From sequence record ON075799: a stretch of 64,000 nucleotides of DNA; one strand, 5' to 3'. How positions within the stretch are numbered: position 1 is the first letter of the stretch; every line of letters begins with the position of its first letter. The DNA is from Escherichia phage vB_EcoM_TH18. The notes under the pieces were generated by a model. It searched no databases. It was not told where the DNA came from and saw nothing but the letters and a program-made list of their open reading frames with translations. Shown here piece by piece: positions 2,304 through 32,186 of this stretch. A program made the position numbers and the translations under genes.

Positions 2304-2499
2304 ACATTTTTACCTTTAATTTCTTGTTACCGATATTCCACCAACTTATAGCACTAAGCTCACTCAGCGCGTGGGGTCCAGAAGTCCCGCATTTCTGACA
2401 ATAAATGTAGTGGAAAACTGTTTGCCCAGAGCGTTTCTGTTTAAGCAAAAGTGCATCATTTTTACAAAATGGGCACGGTTTTGGTAGAAAATCTTTCAT
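2296..2499 (-). CDS. Lar-like zinc-ribbon protein (putative restriction alleviation)
   Basis: 67 aa, 'PCPFCKN...CQKCG' CxxC...CxxC pattern typical of Lar family. Confidence 0.4.
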   Translation of the reverse strand: MKDFLPKPCPFCKNDALLLKQKRSGQTVFHYIYCQKCGTSGPHALSELSAISWWNIGNKKLKVKMYV

Positions 2500-3296
2500 T
2501 AAACCACCTTATTCAGCATAGCTGTGATTTTTGGTAAACTCATTTTCGTATTGATCATGAGTTGTGTTAATGCTGTTTCCATCTTTTCAGAAACAATAAT
2601 AAAATTATCTTTTGCGAACCCTAGTTCCAAATCCATAATAAGAATAGGTTTTGGTGTTTTTGTTAACTTTTCGCCTGTTAGAGAACAGGTGTTTCTTGAA
2701 TATTTAGCCTTAAATTGTGCATAAGTAACGCTAACATTCATACCTGCTTCTGCAAATGTTTTGCAGTAGTTTGCGTATGCAAGTGCAATCTCAACATCAT
2801 CAGGAAGAGATTTTTCTTTCATCTCTTCAACCTGCTCATCAATAATTACATTCTCTGTCTCTTTCATATCTTTTTCCGTAGGTATATATTTCAGTTTTAA
2901 CTTTTCCAGATGGTCTTTTGACATATTCAACATCATTCCTTGGACGATATCCATGTCAAGCGGATCTGCAATCGTTAGAGCTTTCTTTTTGTCTACAAGA
3001 AAATCTTTTAACTGGTTTGCTCTCTTACCGACTACACAAACGTTTCCACGAACATACCCTTTTTTGTCATCTATTCGTTCCACAGATGGGTAGAGAGGGT
3101 CATTAGGTGTTGCAGAAAAAGGTAGGCCTGTGTAATCACAAACACCTTTCCCAAGTAATCCTTTACCCATCATAAACCAGTCATCTTCTGTCAGATTAAA
3201 CTCTATACCCCTTGCTTTGGTATTTCTCTTTTTGAAAAAGAGTCGTGTTTTGAGATGCCTTATCTCTTTGGTTGTAAACTCTTCATTCCAGTCCAT
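2499..3296 (-). CDS. putative homing-endonuclease-like protein (HNH-type variant), free-standing
   Basis: motif 'GIEFNLTEDDW...CDYTG...PSVERIDDKKGYVRGNVCVV' resembles phage HNH-family nucleases; assignment from memory. Confidence 0.3.
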   Translation of the reverse strand: MDWNEEFTTKEIRHLKTRLFFKKRNTKARGIEFNLTEDDWFMMGKGLLGKGVCDYTGLPFSATPNDPLYPSVERIDDKKGYVRGNVCVVGKRANQLKDFLVDKKKALTIADPLDMDIVQGMMLNMSKDHLEKLKLKYIPTEKDMKETENVIIDEQVEEMKEKSLPDDVEIALAYANYCKTFAEAGMNVSVTYAQFKAKYSRNTCSLTGEKLTKTPKPILIMDLELGFAKDNFIIVSEKMETALTQLMINTKMSLPKITAMLNKVV

Positions 3297-7243: not shown

Positions 7244-7419
7244 TGACAAAACATAAGTTTAAGAAAGACCAGCTACATGAGAAATGGTGGTTTGAGAGAT
7301 CCGATATGGTTATGGCTGGGTACACCTATAAAAATAGGCGTGTGTTTGTTGTTTGTGCTAAAAATAAAAGCGAGGCATTGGAAAGTATGAATGCCTTCCT
7401 TGAAAGGAGTTGTGAATGA
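7243..7419 (+). CDS. small ORF (58 aa), not in ORF track
   Basis: ATG overlaps upstream stop (TGATG) and its stop overlaps next ATG (ATGA); fills an otherwise empty 170-bp gap. Confidence 0.3.
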   Translation: MTKHKFKKDQLHEKWWFERSDMVMAGYTYKNRRVFVVCAKNKSEALESMNAFLERSCE

Positions 7420-10188: not shown

Positions 10189-10202
10189 CAGAAAGCCCCT
10201 TT

Positions 10203-10748
10203 ATGGGGCTTATTTGTCTGGAGTTAGTTTTGAAAATAAGATCTTTATTATTTGCTGTTTGCTGTGCACTTTCTCTGTCTATTACCCCTGTTCTAGCCAA
10301 AGAAAGTGCAAAGAAGCCCAGAGTTCTTCATGTTTGTAAGAAGAACGACACAGAGCTTAATATTCTTGCCTGCAATATGTATAAAGAAGGAAGAGGCGAA
10401 GGCGATTATGGAATGATGGGTGTTGCGTTTGTCACGTTGAACAGAAAGGATGACAAAAATTTCCCTCATACTATCAAGAAAGTAGTTTATCAACTTGGGC
10501 AATTCTCTTGGACATTCGGTGGACAATCCTTTAAAGTCTATGAAAAGGACAGATGGTTGAGAGCTAGATTTTATGCTAAAATCTTGATGAGGTTGCATAA
10601 AGACCACAAAAGTTTATACAAAGCTCTTGACTACACAAAATCAGCAACGTACTATCATGCAACTACTGTTAGGCCATCTTGGGCAAAAGTTATGGTGAAA
10701 ACAGTGAAGGTTGGGAATCATATTTTTTACAAGCATCCTGACGTATAA
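10203..10748 (+). CDS. secreted SleB-like cell-wall hydrolase (Hydrolase_2 family), endolysin candidate
   Basis: N-terminal signal-like hydrophobic segment; 'KEGRGE...GMMGVAFVTLNR...FPHTIKKVVYQLGQFS' SleB signature. Confidence 0.6.
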   Translation: MGLICLELVLKIRSLLFAVCCALSLSITPVLAKESAKKPRVLHVCKKNDTELNILACNMYKEGRGEGDYGMMGVAFVTLNRKDDKNFPHTIKKVVYQLGQFSWTFGGQSFKVYEKDRWLRARFYAKILMRLHKDHKSLYKALDYTKSATYYHATTVRPSWAKVMVKTVKVGNHIFYKHPDV

Positions 10749-17310: not shown

Positions 17311-18079
17311 TTTCTGGTATACTCAAAAGGCCCACGTTACGGGCCTGTTTTCTGGTATGGGAGGTGTATTGAGTGACACAGTTTTATGCATGTTTGACGG
17401 ATCAGGTATCATGGGCCACGAATGGGCAAAAAATGGGCACAAAGTGATATGCCTTAATTATGATGGCGCTGATCACGGCGGTTATGAAAGTATCAGAATA
17501 AAACACAAAAACATAGAATACATTAATGTTTGGATAGATGACCAGTTTAACCCAGTAGAGATAGGGCTTTGTAAGCCAAGTATTATATTCGCATTTCCAC
17601 CATGTACAGACATGGCTGTTAGTGGTGCAGCGCATTTCGCAAGAAAAGCTGCAAAAGACCCTTTATTCCAGATAAAGGCTGTAAATACAGCAAAGGTGGC
17701 AGCAAGGTTGGCAGATGAATACGGCTGCCCTTACATGATAGAAAATCCAGTTAGTGTTCTATCTTCTCTGTGGCGTAAACCAGATCATTCATTTCATCCT
17801 TATGAGTACGGCGGGTATCTATCAGAGAATGATGTTCATCCATTTTTTCCAGAATACATAAAACCAAGAGATGCCTACCCTAAGAAGACTTGTTTGTGGA
17901 CAGGTAATGGTTTTAAGATGCCGGAGAAATTACCTGTCCCCGTGTTAAGCGGGTATTCTGATCAACACCTAAAGCTGGGTGGGAAATCAAAAAAGACAAA
18001 GGTTATAAGGTCGCTAACCCCAAGAGGATTTGCCAAAGCCGTATTCCTATATAATGATTTTAGGAGGGTTGGTGGATAA
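17279..18079 (+). CDS. DNA (cytosine-5)-methyltransferase-like protein (short)
   Basis: motif I-like 'LFSGMGG', motif IV-like 'FPPCTDMAVSG', motif VI-like 'ENPVSVL'. Confidence 0.4.
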   Translation: MEAQSTRRCIDFWYTQKAHVTGLFSGMGGVLSDTVLCMFDGSGIMGHEWAKNGHKVICLNYDGADHGGYESIRIKHKNIEYINVWIDDQFNPVEIGLCKPSIIFAFPPCTDMAVSGAAHFARKAAKDPLFQIKAVNTAKVAARLADEYGCPYMIENPVSVLSSLWRKPDHSFHPYEYGGYLSENDVHPFFPEYIKPRDAYPKKTCLWTGNGFKMPEKLPVPVLSGYSDQHLKLGGKSKKTKVIRSLTPRGFAKAVFLYNDFRRVGG

Positions 18080-18230: not shown

Positions 18231-21158
18231 ATGAAGATTACAAAATGGGGGGCTGGTGCATACTTTGAAGGTGAGAACCCAAAAGCATTCCGTCCTGAAC
18301 GAAAAAGTGGTGGTAAAGTGAATTATCAGAAAAAAGAAGAAGAAACCGTAGAGTCTGTCCTAGATAGCACAAGGATCCTGGCTGTCCCCCAAATGGATAT
18401 TAGTTTAGATGCAGCTAAGTACTTTAAGATCAGATCTGCAACAGATTTGAAAGACGGCACTACAGTAGTGGCAACATATCTTCCATATTATGACAAATAT
18501 GGGAAATTGACAGGGTACAAGAAACGAGACTGGTCTGTCCCAAAAGAAAAAAAAGGTCATTTCTCTGTTGTTGGCACAGTGAAGGCCTCCTCTCAATTTT
18601 TTGGGCAACATGAAGCCGCTATGGGATCTGGTAAAAAACAGATCTTTATTGTTGAGGGGGAGGGTGATGTAACGGCTGGCTGGCAAGCTGGGTTTGAGTA
18701 TATTAAATTTCTTCATAGTAATCCTAATACGTCACGTTCAGTACGTGAGTGGGCAAGTAATGCTTTAAAAGGCATCAAAGCCATTCAGGATGGCGAAGAG
18801 GTTTCTAATTGCCCGACATTACCTTTTATCGGGTTGAACTGTGGAACAGCCAATGCGGTGGATACATTTGCCCACAACGAAAAGTTTATCAGGGAATATG
18901 AAAAGATTGTCCTTGGTTTAGACAATGATGAAGCCACAGCAAGGGAAAAAGAACACAGAATTAAGAAAGGTAAGGAAGCCACAGATGATGTTGCTAGTTT
19001 TTTGTTGTCTGACAACATCTATGTTGCACGATACCCGAATGAACGCAATGACCCAAATGGTGTTAAAGATATCCGGGATATTTACAAAAAAGGTAAGTGG
19101 ATGGATATCTGGAACATGTTTGCTAAAGCGCAGGATAAATATGTTCCTGACAAATTGATTGGGTTGGAGAGAATATCTATTGAAAATCTCCGTAAAAAGA
19201 AAAAAGATGGCGTTCCGTTGCCTTGCTTTCCTCGTTTGTATGAACTAACAAGAGGCCCACGAACAGGAGAATTGTGGACACTGACAGGCCCATCTGGAGC
19301 TGGGAAATCAACTTTCTCAAGAAAGATTGAATACGCAATTATCGAGTACCTCCGTAACATGGATATTCCCCGACTAGACGGATGGAAAGAGAACGAGAAG
19401 ATTGCAATTATCCGTCTAGAGGAGGATGAAGAGGAGTCTGTAAACAGTCTATATGCTGAGGAGTTAAAAATTGACCCGAAAGCATTTGTTGCAGACCCAG
19501 AGCAATTTCTTACCGATGAGCAGCACTTAGCGATACACCAACGGTGGATTGCCGAAGATAAGGTTAAAATTTTTGACCACTTTGGTTCAATACCGACTGA
19601 CCAATTGCTACAAAAATTGAAACAGATGGTTTTCCTTGATGGGTGCAGATGGATTATCTTAGATCACTTGTCGATGGTAATATCAGGATTAAAATCTGAT
19701 AACGAGCGAAGAGATTTAGATAACATCATGACGGAATTGGCTGCCTTCTGCAAAAAATATGACGTGTTTATCCTCAGTATCAGCCATATGAAGCGTAAAG
19801 AGATACAGATTCCAAAAGATAAGGATGGTAATCTCTTACCATTTTGGTATCCTGTGCGGAAAGAGGATCTTCGTGGTTGTCTTAACGGTTATGTAGAGTT
19901 CCTTACACCAGAAGGTTGGGTGCAGTTAAAAGACTACACACCGGGACAAAAAGTGGCACAGTGGGCAGACGGGGAGATATCTTTTACTGACGATGTTGAG
20001 CACATTAGACTTGAATGTCGAGAGGATATGTATGCATTCCGCAATTCAAGTTTTGAGATGACTGTCTCTGGAGAGCATCGTGTTCTACTGGATGTGGGGG
20101 GTGAGAAACAAGTTCTCACTGCGGAAGAGATTGCTAAACTGGCAAAATACGCTAGTTTTAAAGAACGATCTTCTATTGTCAGACATTACAGTGCTGGCAA
20201 TTTCCAGACATCATTAACAGAATGGCAAATCCGCGCCATGGTGATGTTTGCCGCTGATGGATGCTATCACAGCAATGGTTTGTGTAAGATGGAATTAAGA
20301 AAAGAGAGGAAAATAGAAAGAGCAACTAAAATTCTTGACAAACTTGGCGTGCATTATTCTCACGCAGTAAATAAAAGAGGGAACACAACCTTCAGGACTA
20401 AGGCATTGACAGAGAAAAAACCTCTACATCTATGCCATAATTGGTTTATTGAACCAAGCCATACCCTCAAAATTCTACTGGATGAGGTGTTCTTGTGGGA
20501 CGGTAGCGATAAAGGTGATAAGGGAAGAGAGTTTACTTCTAAGTATCGAGAAGAGTGTGATGTTGTTCAACACGCTGCTCATGCGAATGGAATGAGCACA
20601 AAACTCTACTCACGAACAGTAAATGGTGTTACATACTACACATTAAGTGTGTATCGGGAAGGTTCTTGTAAAAATAAGACATCTTTACGATCTCTTAAAC
20701 TGGAGAGAGAGCCTTCATGGGATGGATATAAATACTGCTTCAAAGTACCATCCAGCTATTTTGTTGTTCGACAAAACGGTGTGGTGTTCGTCACAGGAAA
20801 TAGTGCAGCACTCGAGCAGTTATCATGGGTTGTATTAGGTGTTGAACCTGAAGAACTCCCTGATCGCTCTCGTGGGCGTATTCGTAGCGTTGTAATGAAA
20901 AACCGTCCACATAAAAAATTAGGTATAGCGGATACTCTGATTATGGATGATAATGGTCAGTTTTCTGATGCATCTGGTTGGGTGTGGGAAGATGGTATGT
21001 TTAAACTTAATGGGGAGGTAATGCTAAGACCTAAATCAATGATTCAAAGTCTGGAACTTGAAACACCTGTGGGGAAAATTGCTGTTTCTGTTCCTCAACA
21101 AGAACCTGCTGTTGTTATTGAGCAACCTGAAGATTTAGATAGCGATTCTCCATTTTGA
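18231..21158 (+). CDS. primase-helicase (T7 gp4-like; Toprim + DnaB-family helicase) containing an intein
   Basis: 'EGEGD'/'DND' Toprim-like, Walker A 'GPSGAGKST', Walker B 'IILDH', helicase motif H4 'DLRG/SAALEQ' interrupted by a 308-aa insert. Confidence 0.7.
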   Translation: MKITKWGAGAYFEGENPKAFRPERKSGGKVNYQKKEEETVESVLDSTRILAVPQMDISLDAAKYFKIRSATDLKDGTTVVATYLPYYDKYGKLTGYKKRDWSVPKEKKGHFSVVGTVKASSQFFGQHEAAMGSGKKQIFIVEGEGDVTAGWQAGFEYIKFLHSNPNTSRSVREWASNALKGIKAIQDGEEVSNCPTLPFIGLNCGTANAVDTFAHNEKFIREYEKIVLGLDNDEATAREKEHRIKKGKEATDDVASFLLSDNIYVARYPNERNDPNGVKDIRDIYKKGKWMDIWNMFAKAQDKYVPDKLIGLERISIENLRKKKKDGVPLPCFPRLYELTRGPRTGELWTLTGPSGAGKSTFSRKIEYAIIEYLRNMDIPRLDGWKENEKIAIIRLEEDEEESVNSLYAEELKIDPKAFVADPEQFLTDEQHLAIHQRWIAEDKVKIFDHFGSIPTDQLLQKLKQMVFLDGCRWIILDHLSMVISGLKSDNERRDLDNIMTELAAFCKKYDVFILSISHMKRKEIQIPKDKDGNLLPFWYPVRKEDLRGCLNGYVEFLTPEGWVQLKDYTPGQKVAQWADGEISFTDDVEHIRLECREDMYAFRNSSFEMTVSGEHRVLLDVGGEKQVLTAEEIAKLAKYASFKERSSIVRHYSAGNFQTSLTEWQIRAMVMFAADGCYHSNGLCKMELRKERKIERATKILDKLGVHYSHAVNKRGNTTFRTKALTEKKPLHLCHNWFIEPSHTLKILLDEVFLWDGSDKGDKGREFTSKYREECDVVQHAAHANGMSTKLYSRTVNGVTYYTLSVYREGSCKNKTSLRSLKLEREPSWDGYKYCFKVPSSYFVVRQNGVVFVTGNSAALEQLSWVVLGVEPEELPDRSRGRIRSVVMKNRPHKKLGIADTLIMDDNGQFSDASGWVWEDGMFKLNGEVMLRPKSMIQSLELETPVGKIAVSVPQQEPAVVIEQPEDLDSDSPF
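19878..20801 (+). mobile_element. intein (308 aa) in helicase motif H4
   Basis: begins Cys 'CLNGYVEFLTPEGW', ends '...VVFVTGN' followed by Ser; flanks rejoin to 'DLRG-SAALEQ' (cf. DnaB 'DLRESGSIEQ'). Confidence 0.6.
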
Positions 21159-21205
21159 GAGAAAAAAGAGGATACATGTAAAATATGATGAGTTAGCTAT
21201 TCGTG

Positions 21206-21256
21206 TTGCCAAGGGGCTTGAGGGATACATTCCCGCCAAGAGAAGCCCTTTGGCAA
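21206..21256 (+). promoter_or_regulatory. long imperfect RNA hairpin between primase-helicase and DNA polymerase
   Basis: 14-bp stem (one G-U) TTGCCAAGGGGCTT / AAGCCCTTTGGCAA with inner GGGA/TCCC stem; no U-tract. Confidence 0.35.
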
Positions 21257-21353
21257 AGAAACATATGTCAAAAATAGGCAGTTTTCCACATAATCTATAA
21301 CCAACTAAGAGATGGGCGACGATACAGTCAAGCCCATCTTGAATAGGAGGAGT

Positions 21354-23390
21354 ATGAAAGGACTTTTTTTAGCCGATACAGAGGCTGATGGATTATTAGA
21401 AGAGGCAACTAAATATCACTGCACACTTTTTAAAGAATATGCTGTAAATAACTGGGTGTTGTTTCTCGATCCTGCTCACAAGGAATATCAGAGTGCAGTT
21501 AATTTTGCACGCAGCAAGGAAGGTGTTAATTTACGAATCCTTTCTTATGATGATTTTTACTCTTGGTTACAGACCGAACCAAGAGGGATAGCAATACATA
21601 ACCTGTTCGGCTATGACTTACGCCTGTGGAAAAAACTTTCTGGGATTGAATATGATATGTTCAAAGACCCAAAATGCATGGGGACGATAGGTAATAAACA
21701 GGTAAATCTTTACGACACTCTTTCAATGAGTCGTGTTCTTTACCCAGACCGCCCATTGCCTAATGGCTGCCCAGACTCTGTATTGAACCCTGTAACAGGA
21801 AAACGTGACAGGGTTGGGCCACACGGCTTATTGGCATGGGGTTATCGTGTAGCAAACAAGAAAGTGCAGATTGATGATTGGCGTAATCAGCCATTGTGGG
21901 AATATGTAAACCGTGTATGGGAAGACGTTATCATTAACGAACTTGTGTGGAAAGCTCTTATTGATGAGTCAAATGGTACGCGATGGCCTGATGACAAGCA
22001 GTTTATGTATACTGATAAACCTCACGGGATGCACCAGATTAATTGGAAAAATGCATTACGTAGGAGAATGCTCACAGACTATTTGATGATAGAGCAAGAA
22101 ATACAGGGTGTATACTTTAATCGGGAGGAGGCAGAAAAATTAAGAGATCGCATAGATAAGATGATGCGAGAAATTGAAGAAGAGGTAGAACCACTTCTTC
22201 CAAAAAAAGAGATGACGAAATCCCAACAACCAAAATTCCCAGCTAACCCTTTTGACACAGCGGGCAATATATCTCATCATGGGTGGAATTGGTTGGAATA
22301 TAAACTTGGCTATCCTGTTAACAGAGAAGCTCTGGAGTTCAAGGCTCCACCAAAAACAGCCTTTAAGAGTAACGGGGATGTAAGTGCAGCAGGGGAGAGA
22401 TATTGCATCCAGAATGGCATTGAAGATCCGGCTTTATACGGTGATTTCATTCGTTCCCAGCGAACCAAAGAGAACACACTCGAACCTTTACCGCCAGATC
22501 TTCTAGAGAAGGCTAAAGAAGACCTTCGAAATAGAAAAATGCCAGATTTAATGGTTCCAATGAAAATCTCTAATCAAGATGATATTAAAAAATATTTGAT
22601 CAAAGATGCTGGTTGGAAACCTACACTGTGGCGTGTAAAAGATGTTACTAAGGATCAATTTAAAAAGGCCCGTGAAGATTCTGAAATCGATGTACTAGTT
22701 AAGAAGTACATAGAAGAGTTGGCAGAATCTGAATATAAATCTCTTATTCTTGAATACCTTAATGATTCAGATGAGAAATTCAACATTTCAGAACGTAAGT
22801 TTGACCATCGCCATGCATCTGAAAGGGGTTATTCAGAGATATTTAAGAAATTTCGGCGCAAGGCACGCCAGTTACCGACATCTCCTCAACTAAAAGATAA
22901 TTTTGGGCATCTGTGCCCAAATCTGGAGAAAATTGATGTGCATATGGCAAAACAGATTGTTAAGTGGCTATCACTTCGTAACAGGCGATCTGTTTTAGAC
23001 CCAATGGATGAGGATAAGACGGATACAGGGTTATTAAATCACCCTCGTTTAGACATTGACGGAAAACTCCCAGCACGTTTTTCTGGAATCACTAACACGG
23101 GCAGGTGCAAGCATACTGTTTGCGCAAACATGCCCAAGCCTGATCCGAAGGTCTTGTTGGGAAAAGAAATGCGGGGTCTTTGGACAGTCCCTGAAGGCTA
23201 CTACCTGATGGGTTGTGATGGATCTAACTTAGAAGGTATGATTGCCGCAGCAGGAGCTTTTGAGTTTGATGGCGGTGAATATTTACGTATCATGATGGAA
23301 GAGGATGCCCATGAACGAAATGCAAGAGCATACACAATAGCCGCAGGAAAGGAGGTAACACGCTCTGGAGGAAAGGGGATTACGTATGGT
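21354..23390 (+). CDS. DNA polymerase (family A, T7 gp5-like) exon 1: 3'-5' exonuclease + polymerase motifs A and first half of B
   Basis: N-term 'MKGLFLADTEADGLLEEATKYHC' like T7 gp5 'DIEANALLESVTKFHC'; motif A 'CDGSNLE'; ends '...RSGGKGITYG' then stops in all frames; ATG 21354 with AGGAGG (ORF-track start 21312 less likely). Confidence 0.7.
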
Positions 23391-24124
23391 TAATGATAGC
23401 CCCCTTACAAAGTAATTTGTAAGGCGCACCCATTGAATTGCTGGGAAGTCTGACCGAGTTATGTCGAAGATAATCAGCAGGTAAGCGAATGCTTCCCTCT
23501 TACAAAAGGAGGGAGAATATGAGTACATTTTGTTGTATAATCTGCGGTGAGCAATGTGTTAAAACTGGTAAAAATCAAAAAGTATGTCTCTCTGAAGGCT
23601 GTAAAAGAGAATATCCAAAGATAAAAACCAGAGAATATAGACGCAGAAAGGCCGAAAAAGAAAATAGGCTTGATAGAGTTGGCATAGGAAAAGGTGGTGG
23701 GCAACCTTGTGGAAAATTGTCCAAATTTTATAAAAATGGTATATCGATGTTTCGTAAGTTATCCCCTGTCATAAAGGAACAGAGAAGATACTGTAATAGA
23801 TGTAATAAAGATCTTCTTTATGCAGGTAAGGATGAATGGTGCGTTCATCATATTGACCATGACAGGACGAATAACGAAATAAGTAATTTTGAATTACTTT
23901 GTAAAAAATGCCATCAAATAGAACATAAATGTTGGGAAGCATTCGAAACTTCAACGACTAGCCGAAAGGCGTAGGGCCAAGCGGTGAGGGAAACCTCCAG
24001 TCTTTTAGACTGCCGAAGCGGTGGGCATCCTGAAAAGGATGAAGATATAGTCTGATCTGCATAGAAATATGTAGCAGTTCCTAAGAGGACGGGCATGGTG
24101 TAGCGAGCCATGTTGAACAATATG
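23391..24124 (+). mobile_element. group I intron 1 (with HNH ORF)
   Basis: splits motif B ('...ITYG | IMYGAQAPKIA'); upstream exon ends in T, insert ends in G; shares 'AATTGC-GGGAA' and 'GATATAGTCTGA' elements with intron 2. Confidence 0.55.
23519..23974 (+). CDS. HNH homing endonuclease (intron-encoded)
   Basis: 'CVHHIDHDRTNNEISNFELLCKKCHQIEH' HNH motif with zinc-binding Cys pairs; RBS AAGGAGGG. Confidence 0.65.
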   Translation: MSTFCCIICGEQCVKTGKNQKVCLSEGCKREYPKIKTREYRRRKAEKENRLDRVGIGKGGGQPCGKLSKFYKNGISMFRKLSPVIKEQRRYCNRCNKDLLYAGKDEWCVHHIDHDRTNNEISNFELLCKKCHQIEHKCWEAFETSTTSRKA

Positions 24125-24457
24125 ATCATGTATGGAGCACAGGCTCCTAAGATAGCCGCAATGCTGGGTATCCCCCTTAATAGAGCACAGGCTGTAATAG
24201 ATGCATTCTGGGATAGTAACTTCGGGTTGAAAATGCGTAGGGAGCGGTTGGAAAAATTCTGGGAGGCAAATGGGAGACGCTATATTCCAGGCATGGACGG
24301 GCGTAAAATTTGGACTCGTTCTAAACATTCTCTGCTGAATGCTTACCAACAAAACGGTGGCGCTTCATTGTTTGACCTCATGGGAGTCCTGTTCCATTGG
24401 GAATTGGTAAAACGGGGATGGTACGACCAAGGTGTCAGGAGGGTTATCTATTACCAT
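24125..24457 (+). CDS. DNA polymerase exon 2 (rest of motif B to start of motif C)
   Basis: 'IMYGAQAPKIAAMLGI...RVIYYH' ; ends exactly before 'DE' of motif C. Confidence 0.6.
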
Positions 24458-24774
24458 AAACAATATTGTGGCTTCATGCAGTAATGCATGTCGAAAACCT
24501 CTCTAATTGACGGGAAAGCTAAGTTGATTCTTATAATTTATTGTGTTATAAGGACAATATGCCAATCCGCAGCGAAGCATCCCTACGGGATGAACGTTCA
24601 ACGACTATCGAAAGCACACTAGTAATGTGTAAGTGAGTAGAGTAGGCCAGCAAGTGCGGTCCAAACGGGAGGAACCCTTGAAAAAGGGTTATGATATAGT
24701 CTGACCCACAGGAGAAATCTTGTGGCTATGCACGTAACGGTGCGGGGGAGAGTAGCGAACTCCTTGAACTGGTG
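24458..24774 (+). mobile_element. group I intron 2 (ORF-less)
   Basis: splits motif C 'YYH | DEIQV'; ends in G; conserved elements shared with intron 1. Confidence 0.5.
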
Positions 24775-32131: not shown

Positions 32132-32156
32132 AAGTAACATTTGTTAATATAAAAAA

Positions 32157-32182
32157 GGGAGCTTTTAGCTCCCTTTTCTTTT
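32157..32182. terminator. bidirectional intrinsic terminator at convergence of early and late blocks
   Basis: GGGAGCT-TTT-AGCTCCC flanked by A6 and TTTTCTTTT. Confidence 0.6.
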
Positions 32183-32186
32183 GCTA

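Follow-up and report, generated by a model that had tools for sequence, protein, structure and literature searches.

The DNA polymerase gene of this rV5-like phage is preceded by a hairpin (H2) that, as judged by comparison with its homologues, is conserved, operator-like and previously undescribed. We propose that H2 may be an operator for translation of the polymerase, and that a larger hairpin further upstream (H1), on which an earlier note on this DNA had centred, belongs to a young insertion and is a processing or stability element if it is anything; to this reading as a whole we assign a probability of about 0.45, a little short of even odds. The 195-nt spacer that holds both hairpins is best explained as leader sequence that precedes the polymerase cistron in the sense-strand message and is not translated, and it consists of two layers of different age. 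The window (the whole stretch of DNA analysed, 64 kb) matches the annotation record OK136180.1 (Escherichia phage 18-1-2) with the same coordinates. The features of the spacer and of the adjoining genes are listed below.

21155-21184, plus strand: P1, a weak sigma-70-like match (TTGAGA-18-TAAAAT, 10/12) that overlaps the primase-helicase stop codon
21159-21299, plus strand: lineage-specific non-coding insertion of ~140 nt, 5' of the ACCAACU/H2 leader
21171, 21224 (H1 apex), 21321 (H2 loop) and 21375, plus strand: four GATACA hexamers, spanning 21171-21380
21206-21256, plus strand: H1, a hairpin with a 14-bp stem, a 2/8-nt internal loop, a 4-bp apical stem, a UACAU loop and no U-tract
21258-21285, plus strand: weak third hairpin of the insertion, from minimum-free-energy and alignment folds, low confidence
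21300-21306, plus strand: ACCAACU motif 5' of H2, conserved in 4MG, PVP-SE1, L009 and L043
21309-21340, plus strand: H2, a bulged hairpin ending 4 nt 5' of the Shine-Dalgarno sequence
21345-21350, plus strand: Shine-Dalgarno sequence AGGAGG, from the sequence
21354-21356, plus strand: polymerase start codon ATG, from sequence and annotation
~23394-24112: group I intron with an HNH ORF (23519-23974), partial RF00028 match of 47.5 bits at 23871-24074
24448-24722: group I intron, Rfam RF00028, 91 bits

The phage is an rV5-like myovirus (Vequintavirinae, Avunavirus) and is not T7-like. The gene upstream of the spacer (18231-21158) encodes a DnaB-type primase-helicase, and the gene that starts at 21354 encodes a DNA polymerase according to the annotation and to PHROG (phrog_17, phrog_8888 and phrog_15971, all named DNA polymerase or DNA polymerase I); Pfam gave no match for it. 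Polymerases of the rV5-like group have been described as family A (PMC3606486). The two replication proteins are thus of T7 type but the phage itself is not T7-like, which speaks against one premise of the earlier note. The same note had correctly placed a 195-bp spacer between the two genes: it runs from 21159 to 21353, starting directly after the TGA (21156-21158) that ends the primase-helicase gene and reaching up to the ATG (21354) of the polymerase. The genome is compact and has few long non-coding tracts. The whole spacer folds with a z-score of -5.6 to -6.1 and was the most structured among 14 intergenic regions tested in the plus-strand gene block.

H2, at 21309-21340, had been overlooked in the earlier note although it lies within the same spacer coordinates. 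Its outer stem pairs 21309-21317 with 21332-21340, and an AA bulge on the 3' side (21330-21331) separates this from an inner stem of 21318-21320 with 21327-21329, which is closed by the hexaloop GAUACA (21321-21326). The RNA of 21300-21353 has a folding energy of -22.1 kcal/mol (z = -6.15), compared with -18.6 for the antisense. H2 is followed by UGAAUAGG, without a U-tract, and is not a terminator; nor does the rV5 paper list the site as one (PMC3606486). Hairpins of the same general form (an outer stem, a 1-2 nt 3' bulge, an inner stem of 3-4 bp and an RRUAYA hexaloop) occur in Seunavirus, Mydovirus, rV5 and unclassified relatives, with many compensatory changes; the carriers are 4MG, PVP-SE1, Klebsiella and Mydovirus phages, loci L012, L014-L017, L030 and L043, and V5. 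The sampling comprised about 12 distinct sequences out of roughly 220 Vequintavirinae genomes. When 11 distinct homologues were folded independently, the H2 architecture was obtained for 10, the exception being the aberrant L017, and the loop conformed to RRUAYA in 10 of the 11 (as GAUACA, GGUACA, AGUACA or AGUAUA). An alignment of nine sequences had 94.9% of its cells paired, and 5 of the 11 pairs were changed on both sides. The covariation score was 0.49, compared with 0.26 for shuffled alignments (0/500 as high), and the signal collapsed once the partners were slid by 1-3 columns. H2 is also biased to the sense strand, with sense-strand G.U pairs in 9/11 homologues and a sense fold more stable than the reverse complement in 10/11.

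Two observations on related phages bear on whether this region is translated. The PVP-SE1 version of H2 replaces GAC/GUC with GUC/GAC, which keeps the pairing and would swap Asp and Val if translated, and L009 has in-frame stop codons across the H2 region. H2 is therefore read as RNA rather than as coding sequence. The same stop codons in L009 contradict a start that an ORF finder placed at 21312, inside H2. In the rV5 annotation, the place between primase-helicase and polymerase is given to a 26-codon ORF, "gp229" (129397-129477; PMC3606486, Table S3), which is probably an artefact because the position of the ORF is that of H2.

In all homologues, 2-6 nt separate the end of the hairpin from the Shine-Dalgarno sequence. 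GGAGG itself is kept in most of them (V5 has AAGGAG and L030 has GGGAG). The ACCAACU motif on the other side of H2 reads AACCAAG in V5. Minimum-free-energy folds suggested that ACCAACU might sequester the Shine-Dalgarno sequence, but across 11 homologues the probability that GGAG is unpaired was the same with shuffled 5' flanks; since the pairing of ACCAACU is no better than that of shuffled flanks, sequestration is not supported. The polymerase start codon differs among relatives (L009-L012 and L044, ~2498-2503; L014, L016 and L017), being ATG, TTG or apparently ATT. The apparent ATT start is seen in Klebsiella-type phages, in the context GGAGGAATCATTAAAGG, where ATG, GTG and TTG are all absent nearby. 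This variation, read from the sequences, suggests weak or tightly controlled initiation.

The association of H2 with the ribosome-binding site is kept even where the leader has been invaded. A second insertion point lies exactly at the polymerase ATG, occupied in L004, L006, L039, L046 and Mydo, and an HNH gene is found between the unit of H2 and Shine-Dalgarno sequence and the polymerase in L004 (1969-2478), L006, L039, L046 and L058 (34-543). The inserted HNH gene uses the ribosome-binding site of the polymerase, and its stop codon overlaps the polymerase start (ATGA); H2 stays joined to the Shine-Dalgarno sequence despite the insertion. H2 was kept, with compensatory base changes, wherever the primase-helicase precedes the polymerase in the rV5-like phages examined. 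It is absent from ICP1 and L032-L035, in which the two genes abut directly, and from Certrevirus-type phages, in which the polymerase has other neighbours. In these phages (L067, ~1430-1500; L059, ~730-800) the upstream genes differ and an unrelated hairpin, GGCAU...AUGCC, stands before the polymerase Shine-Dalgarno sequence.

Within the window H2 is a single copy, matched at 74 bits by the covariance model built from it (R1). Descriptor and covariance-model searches of the window gave no second hairpin of this type, and a regulon of H2 sites was rejected on this ground, the best other match scoring 14 bits. That match, at 7361-7412 (E about 0.1), is a GGC...GCC hairpin followed by UUGAAAGGAG, before a gene starting at 7416, and is probably due to chance. 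A search of 20900-21600 against Rfam 15 at an E-value limit of 10 returned two chance-level matches only (E = 5.5 and 7.7), and there were no matches at the gathering score within the spacer.

The geometry of H2, with a conserved loop and bulge fixed to a ribosome-binding site, is typical of protein-bound translational operators, and by this analogy we infer that H2 is such an operator for the polymerase. The simplest candidate ligands are the polymerase and its primase-helicase partner; the bound protein would contact the H2 loop and bulge within the region that the 30S subunit needs, and would set the frequency at which the polymerase cistron is translated. A homing-endonuclease gene that captured the ribosome-binding site of H2 would fall under the same control. 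H2 is likelier than H1 to be a regulator of polymerase expression. H1, if functional, would most likely be an intercistronic element for mRNA processing or stability, acting as a double-stranded target for host RNase III, as a barrier to 3' exonucleases, or as both. Any such nuclease action would let the primase-helicase and polymerase segments of the message decay independently.

H1 itself was found much as the earlier note had described it. The pairs can be read directly from the sequence and give a 14-bp imperfect stem with an inner 4-bp stem at 21206-21256. The outer stem joins 21206-21219 (TTGCCAAGGGGCTT) with 21243-21256 (AAGCCCTTTGGCAA) in 14 contiguous pairs, of which 13 are Watson-Crick and one is G.U (G21213.U21249), and the inner stem joins 21222-21225 (GGGA) with 21231-21234 (TCCC) around the UACAU loop. 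The internal loop is asymmetric: its 5' strand consists of GA (2 nt) and its 3' strand of GCCAAGAG (8 nt). The helix totals 18-21 bp, including a possible 3-bp basal extension, and amounts to about two turns only if the helices stack across the 2/8 loop. The RNA folding check that the earlier note had proposed was run on the 63-nt sense RNA and gave -29.3 kcal/mol, compared with -15.1 +/- 2.8 for 200 dinucleotide shuffles (z = -5.05; 0/200 as good). The antisense RNA was weaker (-24.3 kcal/mol, z = -3.3), and H1 also folded as single-stranded DNA (-15.9 kcal/mol, z = -4.6). A scan of the whole 64-kb window for stems of at least 14 pairs, with at least 13 Watson-Crick and at least 7 G-C pairs, found only one other comparable to H1, and H1 is itself a single copy in the window. 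The note was also right that a U-tract is absent: the bases 3' of H1 are AAAGAAAC, which rules against H1 as a Rho-independent terminator, and a scan of the plus strand from 20500 to 22000 returned no terminator-like sites. Canonical terminators of this phage, at 10189-10229, 17311-17368 and 32132-32186, carry U-tracts.

H1 lies in an insertion that was found only in four distinct Av-05-type sequences, namely 18-1-2, Av-05 and the metagenome contigs L037 and L038 (phages 19-1-2 and 24-2-1 are identical to 18-1-2). Relatives such as 4MG, PVP-SE1 and V5 have only 53-73 nt from the upstream stop codon to the polymerase start. Contrary to a premise of the earlier note, H1 is not general to replication modules of this kind: it is absent from every relative outside the Av-05 lineage. 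Searches with the insertion gave no match in E. coli genomes, in phage records beyond the Av-05 group, or in the remainder of the window and the other fetched loci; the H1 pattern had no match in GTDB genomes and nothing beyond Av-05 in IMG/VR. A host or foreign origin of the insertion was rejected because the E. coli, GTDB, IMG/VR and phage-record searches were empty outside the Av-05 group. At the same site, L009, L012, L016 and L043 have HNH or other ORFs. On these comparisons, H1 is the core of what appears to be a young structured insertion at a homing-endonuclease hot spot.

Within the insertion, the four variants differ by seven substitutions and one indel, none of them in the 36 stem positions of H1. 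H1 differs only in L037, where G21235, in the 3' part of the internal loop, is replaced by T. By our own calculation the probability of no change in these 36 positions by chance is ~0.09, which is suggestive only. Identity among the four variants is 96.5-97.9% in the insertion, compared with 92-95% at polymerase third codon positions. In the third hairpin, one pair changes from G-C to A-U between the window and the other three variants (alignment A5, columns 122/134). The +1 frame relative to the primase-helicase is open for 47 codons over 21157-21300, after UUU-UGA-G, and its TAA at 21298 adjoins ACCAACU. It was rejected as coding sequence, having no start codon and no Shine-Dalgarno sequence, and it is probably not a frameshift extension because a 1-nt deletion in L038 breaks the frame. 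An 11-codon ORF at 21265 was also rejected, its ATG being lost in the other three variants. H1 was considered as a diverged tandem duplicate of H2 and this was not supported: local alignment of the insertion with H2 and the polymerase start scored below the shuffle mean. The covariance model R1 does not match H1, and it also misses the true rV5, L030 and L017 orthologues.

One alternative is that H1 and the insertion around it are a functionless relic of mobile DNA, for instance the remains of a homing endonuclease, kept at a site that tolerates insertions. The occupation of this very site by HNH or other ORFs in L009, L012, L016 and L043 favours it, as does the crowding of the replication module with selfish elements (an intein, two group I introns and an HNH gene). 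The primase-helicase gene probably contains an intein at 19878-20801, as read from its sequence: the stretch adds exactly 308 residues to a protein that is elsewhere 98-99% identical to its Av-05 counterpart, and it starts with Cys (CLNGYVEF) and ends ...VTGN, followed by Ser. It has no Pfam match and matches PhoH-like and ribonucleotide reductase PHROG profiles. Two group I introns (23394-24722) interrupt the polymerase gene, whose exons appear in the record as separate polymerase CDSs; in 4MG the polymerase is encoded by one ORF of 904 residues. The four H1-bearing variants are moreover too alike, at the level of sequence, to show constraint or selection on H1. Against a relic stands the finding that the insertion is unlike those homing-endonuclease genes at both DNA and peptide level. 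It has no blastn or tblastn similarity to any fetched locus, on which ground a homing-endonuclease remnant was rejected, and its open-frame peptide matched ten upstream ORFs of related loci, six of which encode HNH or other homing endonucleases, and the HNH protein of the window no better than shuffles. A hairpin with z = -5 and 13 Watson-Crick pairs is also unexpected from decaying coding sequence, the stems are unchanged across the four variants, and long non-coding tracts are rare in this genome. We regard a functionless relic as rather unlikely, though about as likely as RNase III processing at H1.

In that second alternative, which had been the proposal of the earlier note and which we also rate as rather unlikely, host RNase III would cleave H1, dividing the message of the primase-helicase from that of the polymerase and fixing the relative amounts of the two. 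The form of H1 speaks for this: it has 14 + 4 (+3) bp and an asymmetric internal loop, lies on the sense strand between two cistrons and is without a U-tract. The substrates accepted by E. coli RNase III include helices of about two turns, helices that stack coaxially, and hairpins down to a minimum of 34 nt (PMC1540722); if its helices stack, H1 would loosely satisfy this structural minimum. Where an internal loop is present, the enzyme cuts only one strand, and a 3' hairpin that protects the RNA is left (PMC1540722); the internal loop of H1 (GA / GCCAAGAG) is of a kind that could restrict cleavage in this way. Recurrence or conservation in the phage group is not seen, with H1 a single copy confined to the four Av-05-type sequences and missing from all relatives outside that lineage. 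No other such hairpin was seen in the intergenic regions of the window, the upper stem, at only 4 bp, is well short of the T7 type, and the phage is not T7-like. A further requirement of the enzyme, permissive base pairs in its proximal and distal boxes, is defined relative to the scissile bond. Cleavage of H1 by RNase III would be geometrically possible, conservation lending it no support.

A bolder version of the operator reading, which we hold to be doubtful, would make H2 the first known operator for autogenous translational control of a phage polymerase of family A (T7-type), extended to a multi-site leader in the Av-05 lineage (one site, GGAUACAU, at 21170, one at the H1 apex and one at H2) and repeatedly hijacked by homing endonucleases. 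Binding of the polymerase or the primase-helicase to H2 would in that case balance both replisome proteins.

It is improbable that the insertion is a promoter cassette, in which P1 would drive a polymerase-specific transcript from about 21190, with H1 as a protective stem-loop close to the 5' end of that transcript. P1 matches the consensus at 10 of 12 positions in the right orientation and is present in all four variants with a 17- or 18-bp spacer (17 in L038), and rV5-like phages have been described as relying on host sigma-70 promoters (PMC3606486). However, 10/12 matches are not enriched in the window (32 observed compared with about 31 expected), so that one has about a 5% chance of falling in any 195-nt stretch, and the evidence from P1 is weak because such matches occur at a random rate. 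In addition, the -35 hexamer overlaps the stop codon, H1 would start about 15 nt from the 5' end, and the small hairpin that precedes it would be truncated. The window also has a CDS annotated as "anti-termination protein" (2499-3296, minus strand), which matches HNH endonuclease and Srd/sigma-70-decoy PHROGs and has no Pfam match. A nut-type antitermination site in the spacer was rejected as baseless because the annotated antiterminator is HNH/Srd-like.

The GATACA hexamers raise a further reading, in which H1 and the site at 21170 are extra sites for the factor that recognises the H2 loop, making a multi-site operator in the Av-05 lineage. GATACA is the sequence of the H2 hexaloop and occurs four times within 210 nt, an arrangement never obtained in 300 dinucleotide shuffles of the window. 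The contexts are paired, with GGATACAT at 21170 and in the H1 apex, 53 nt apart, and CGATACAG in the H2 loop and at 21374, 54 nt apart. The cluster hints at a ligand shared by H1 and H2, but neither alignment nor the covariance model links the two. GATACA is half buried in the apical stem of H1 rather than displayed as a loop, the H2 model has no match to H1 (with the reservation that it misses the three orthologues named above), and the insertion has no overall similarity to the H2 region. The first site reads GATACG in L038, and the fourth lies in coding sequence and is not conserved in 4MG. On balance we think such extra sites quite improbable.

That the structures act as DNA, as a cruciform, replication origin or primosome loading site, is very improbable: the region does lie between the two main replication genes, H1 does fold as single-stranded DNA with the energy given above, and the repeated hexamers are about five helical turns apart, but the only sign changes of the GC skew, near 3.4 kb and 32 kb, follow the orientation of the genes, no inflection at 21.2 kb marks an origin, both hairpins have G.U pairs and greater sense-strand stability, and H2 travels with the Shine-Dalgarno sequence.

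The favoured reading remains that of H2 as a putative operator and of H1 as part of a young insertion. The literature searched contained no description of post-transcriptional control in rV5-like phages, and no transcript maps or accounts of either hairpin for them. These phages are widely isolated as therapeutic and biocontrol candidates, and H2 offers a small, easily mutated candidate motif that is not in Rfam and in rV5 is annotated only as a dubious 26-codon ORF. For genome scans, the spacer illustrates that the most striking hairpin, here H1, need not be the element under selection. H1 also marks an insertion hot spot used by homing endonucleases.

Among known systems, H1 resembles in form the RNase III sites of T7, one of which, R4.7, lies between genes 4 and 5 (primase-helicase and polymerase). 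Like these sites (e.g. R1.1), H1 is an intercistronic sense hairpin with an asymmetric internal loop and no U-tract, would have a helix of nearly two turns if its parts stack, and stands beside genes for a T7-type primase-helicase and a family A polymerase. The T7 sites have an apical stem of about 10 bp and form a family, whereas the apical stem of H1 is 4 bp and H1 is a single copy; H1 further differs in belonging to an rV5-like phage, a group described as using host RNA polymerase promoters, and in not being conserved in relatives. H1 also resembles the REP-type stabiliser hairpins of E. coli operons, in that it is stable, G+C-rich, free of a U-tract and placed between two co-transcribed genes, where it could block 3' exonucleases and favour the upstream message; it differs from them in having no sequence relation to host DNA and in being a single copy. 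H2 recalls the MS2/R17 coat protein operator, a short stem with an unpaired purine on one side and a small conserved loop that overlaps the translation start. The two are alike in bulged stem, small conserved loop and position at the start region, and they differ in loop, bulge position, size and genomic context, with no homology. The closest parallel to H2 is the gene 43 operator of T4 and RB69, where a small hairpin, its loop conserved, directly adjoins the site at which ribosomes bind the polymerase message; T4 gp43 represses its own translation by binding this hairpin and the ribosome-binding site (PMC3014915). H2 likewise has a conserved loop and adjoins the polymerase ribosome-binding site; it differs from the T4 hairpin in its RRUAYA loop and its bulged, two-tiered stem, and its polymerase is of family A. 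Because this polymerase is unrelated to gp43, the likeness is a functional analogy and not family membership. If H2 is an operator, self-limitation of a polymerase by binding its own mRNA would extend from the T4-type family B enzymes to the T7-type family A.
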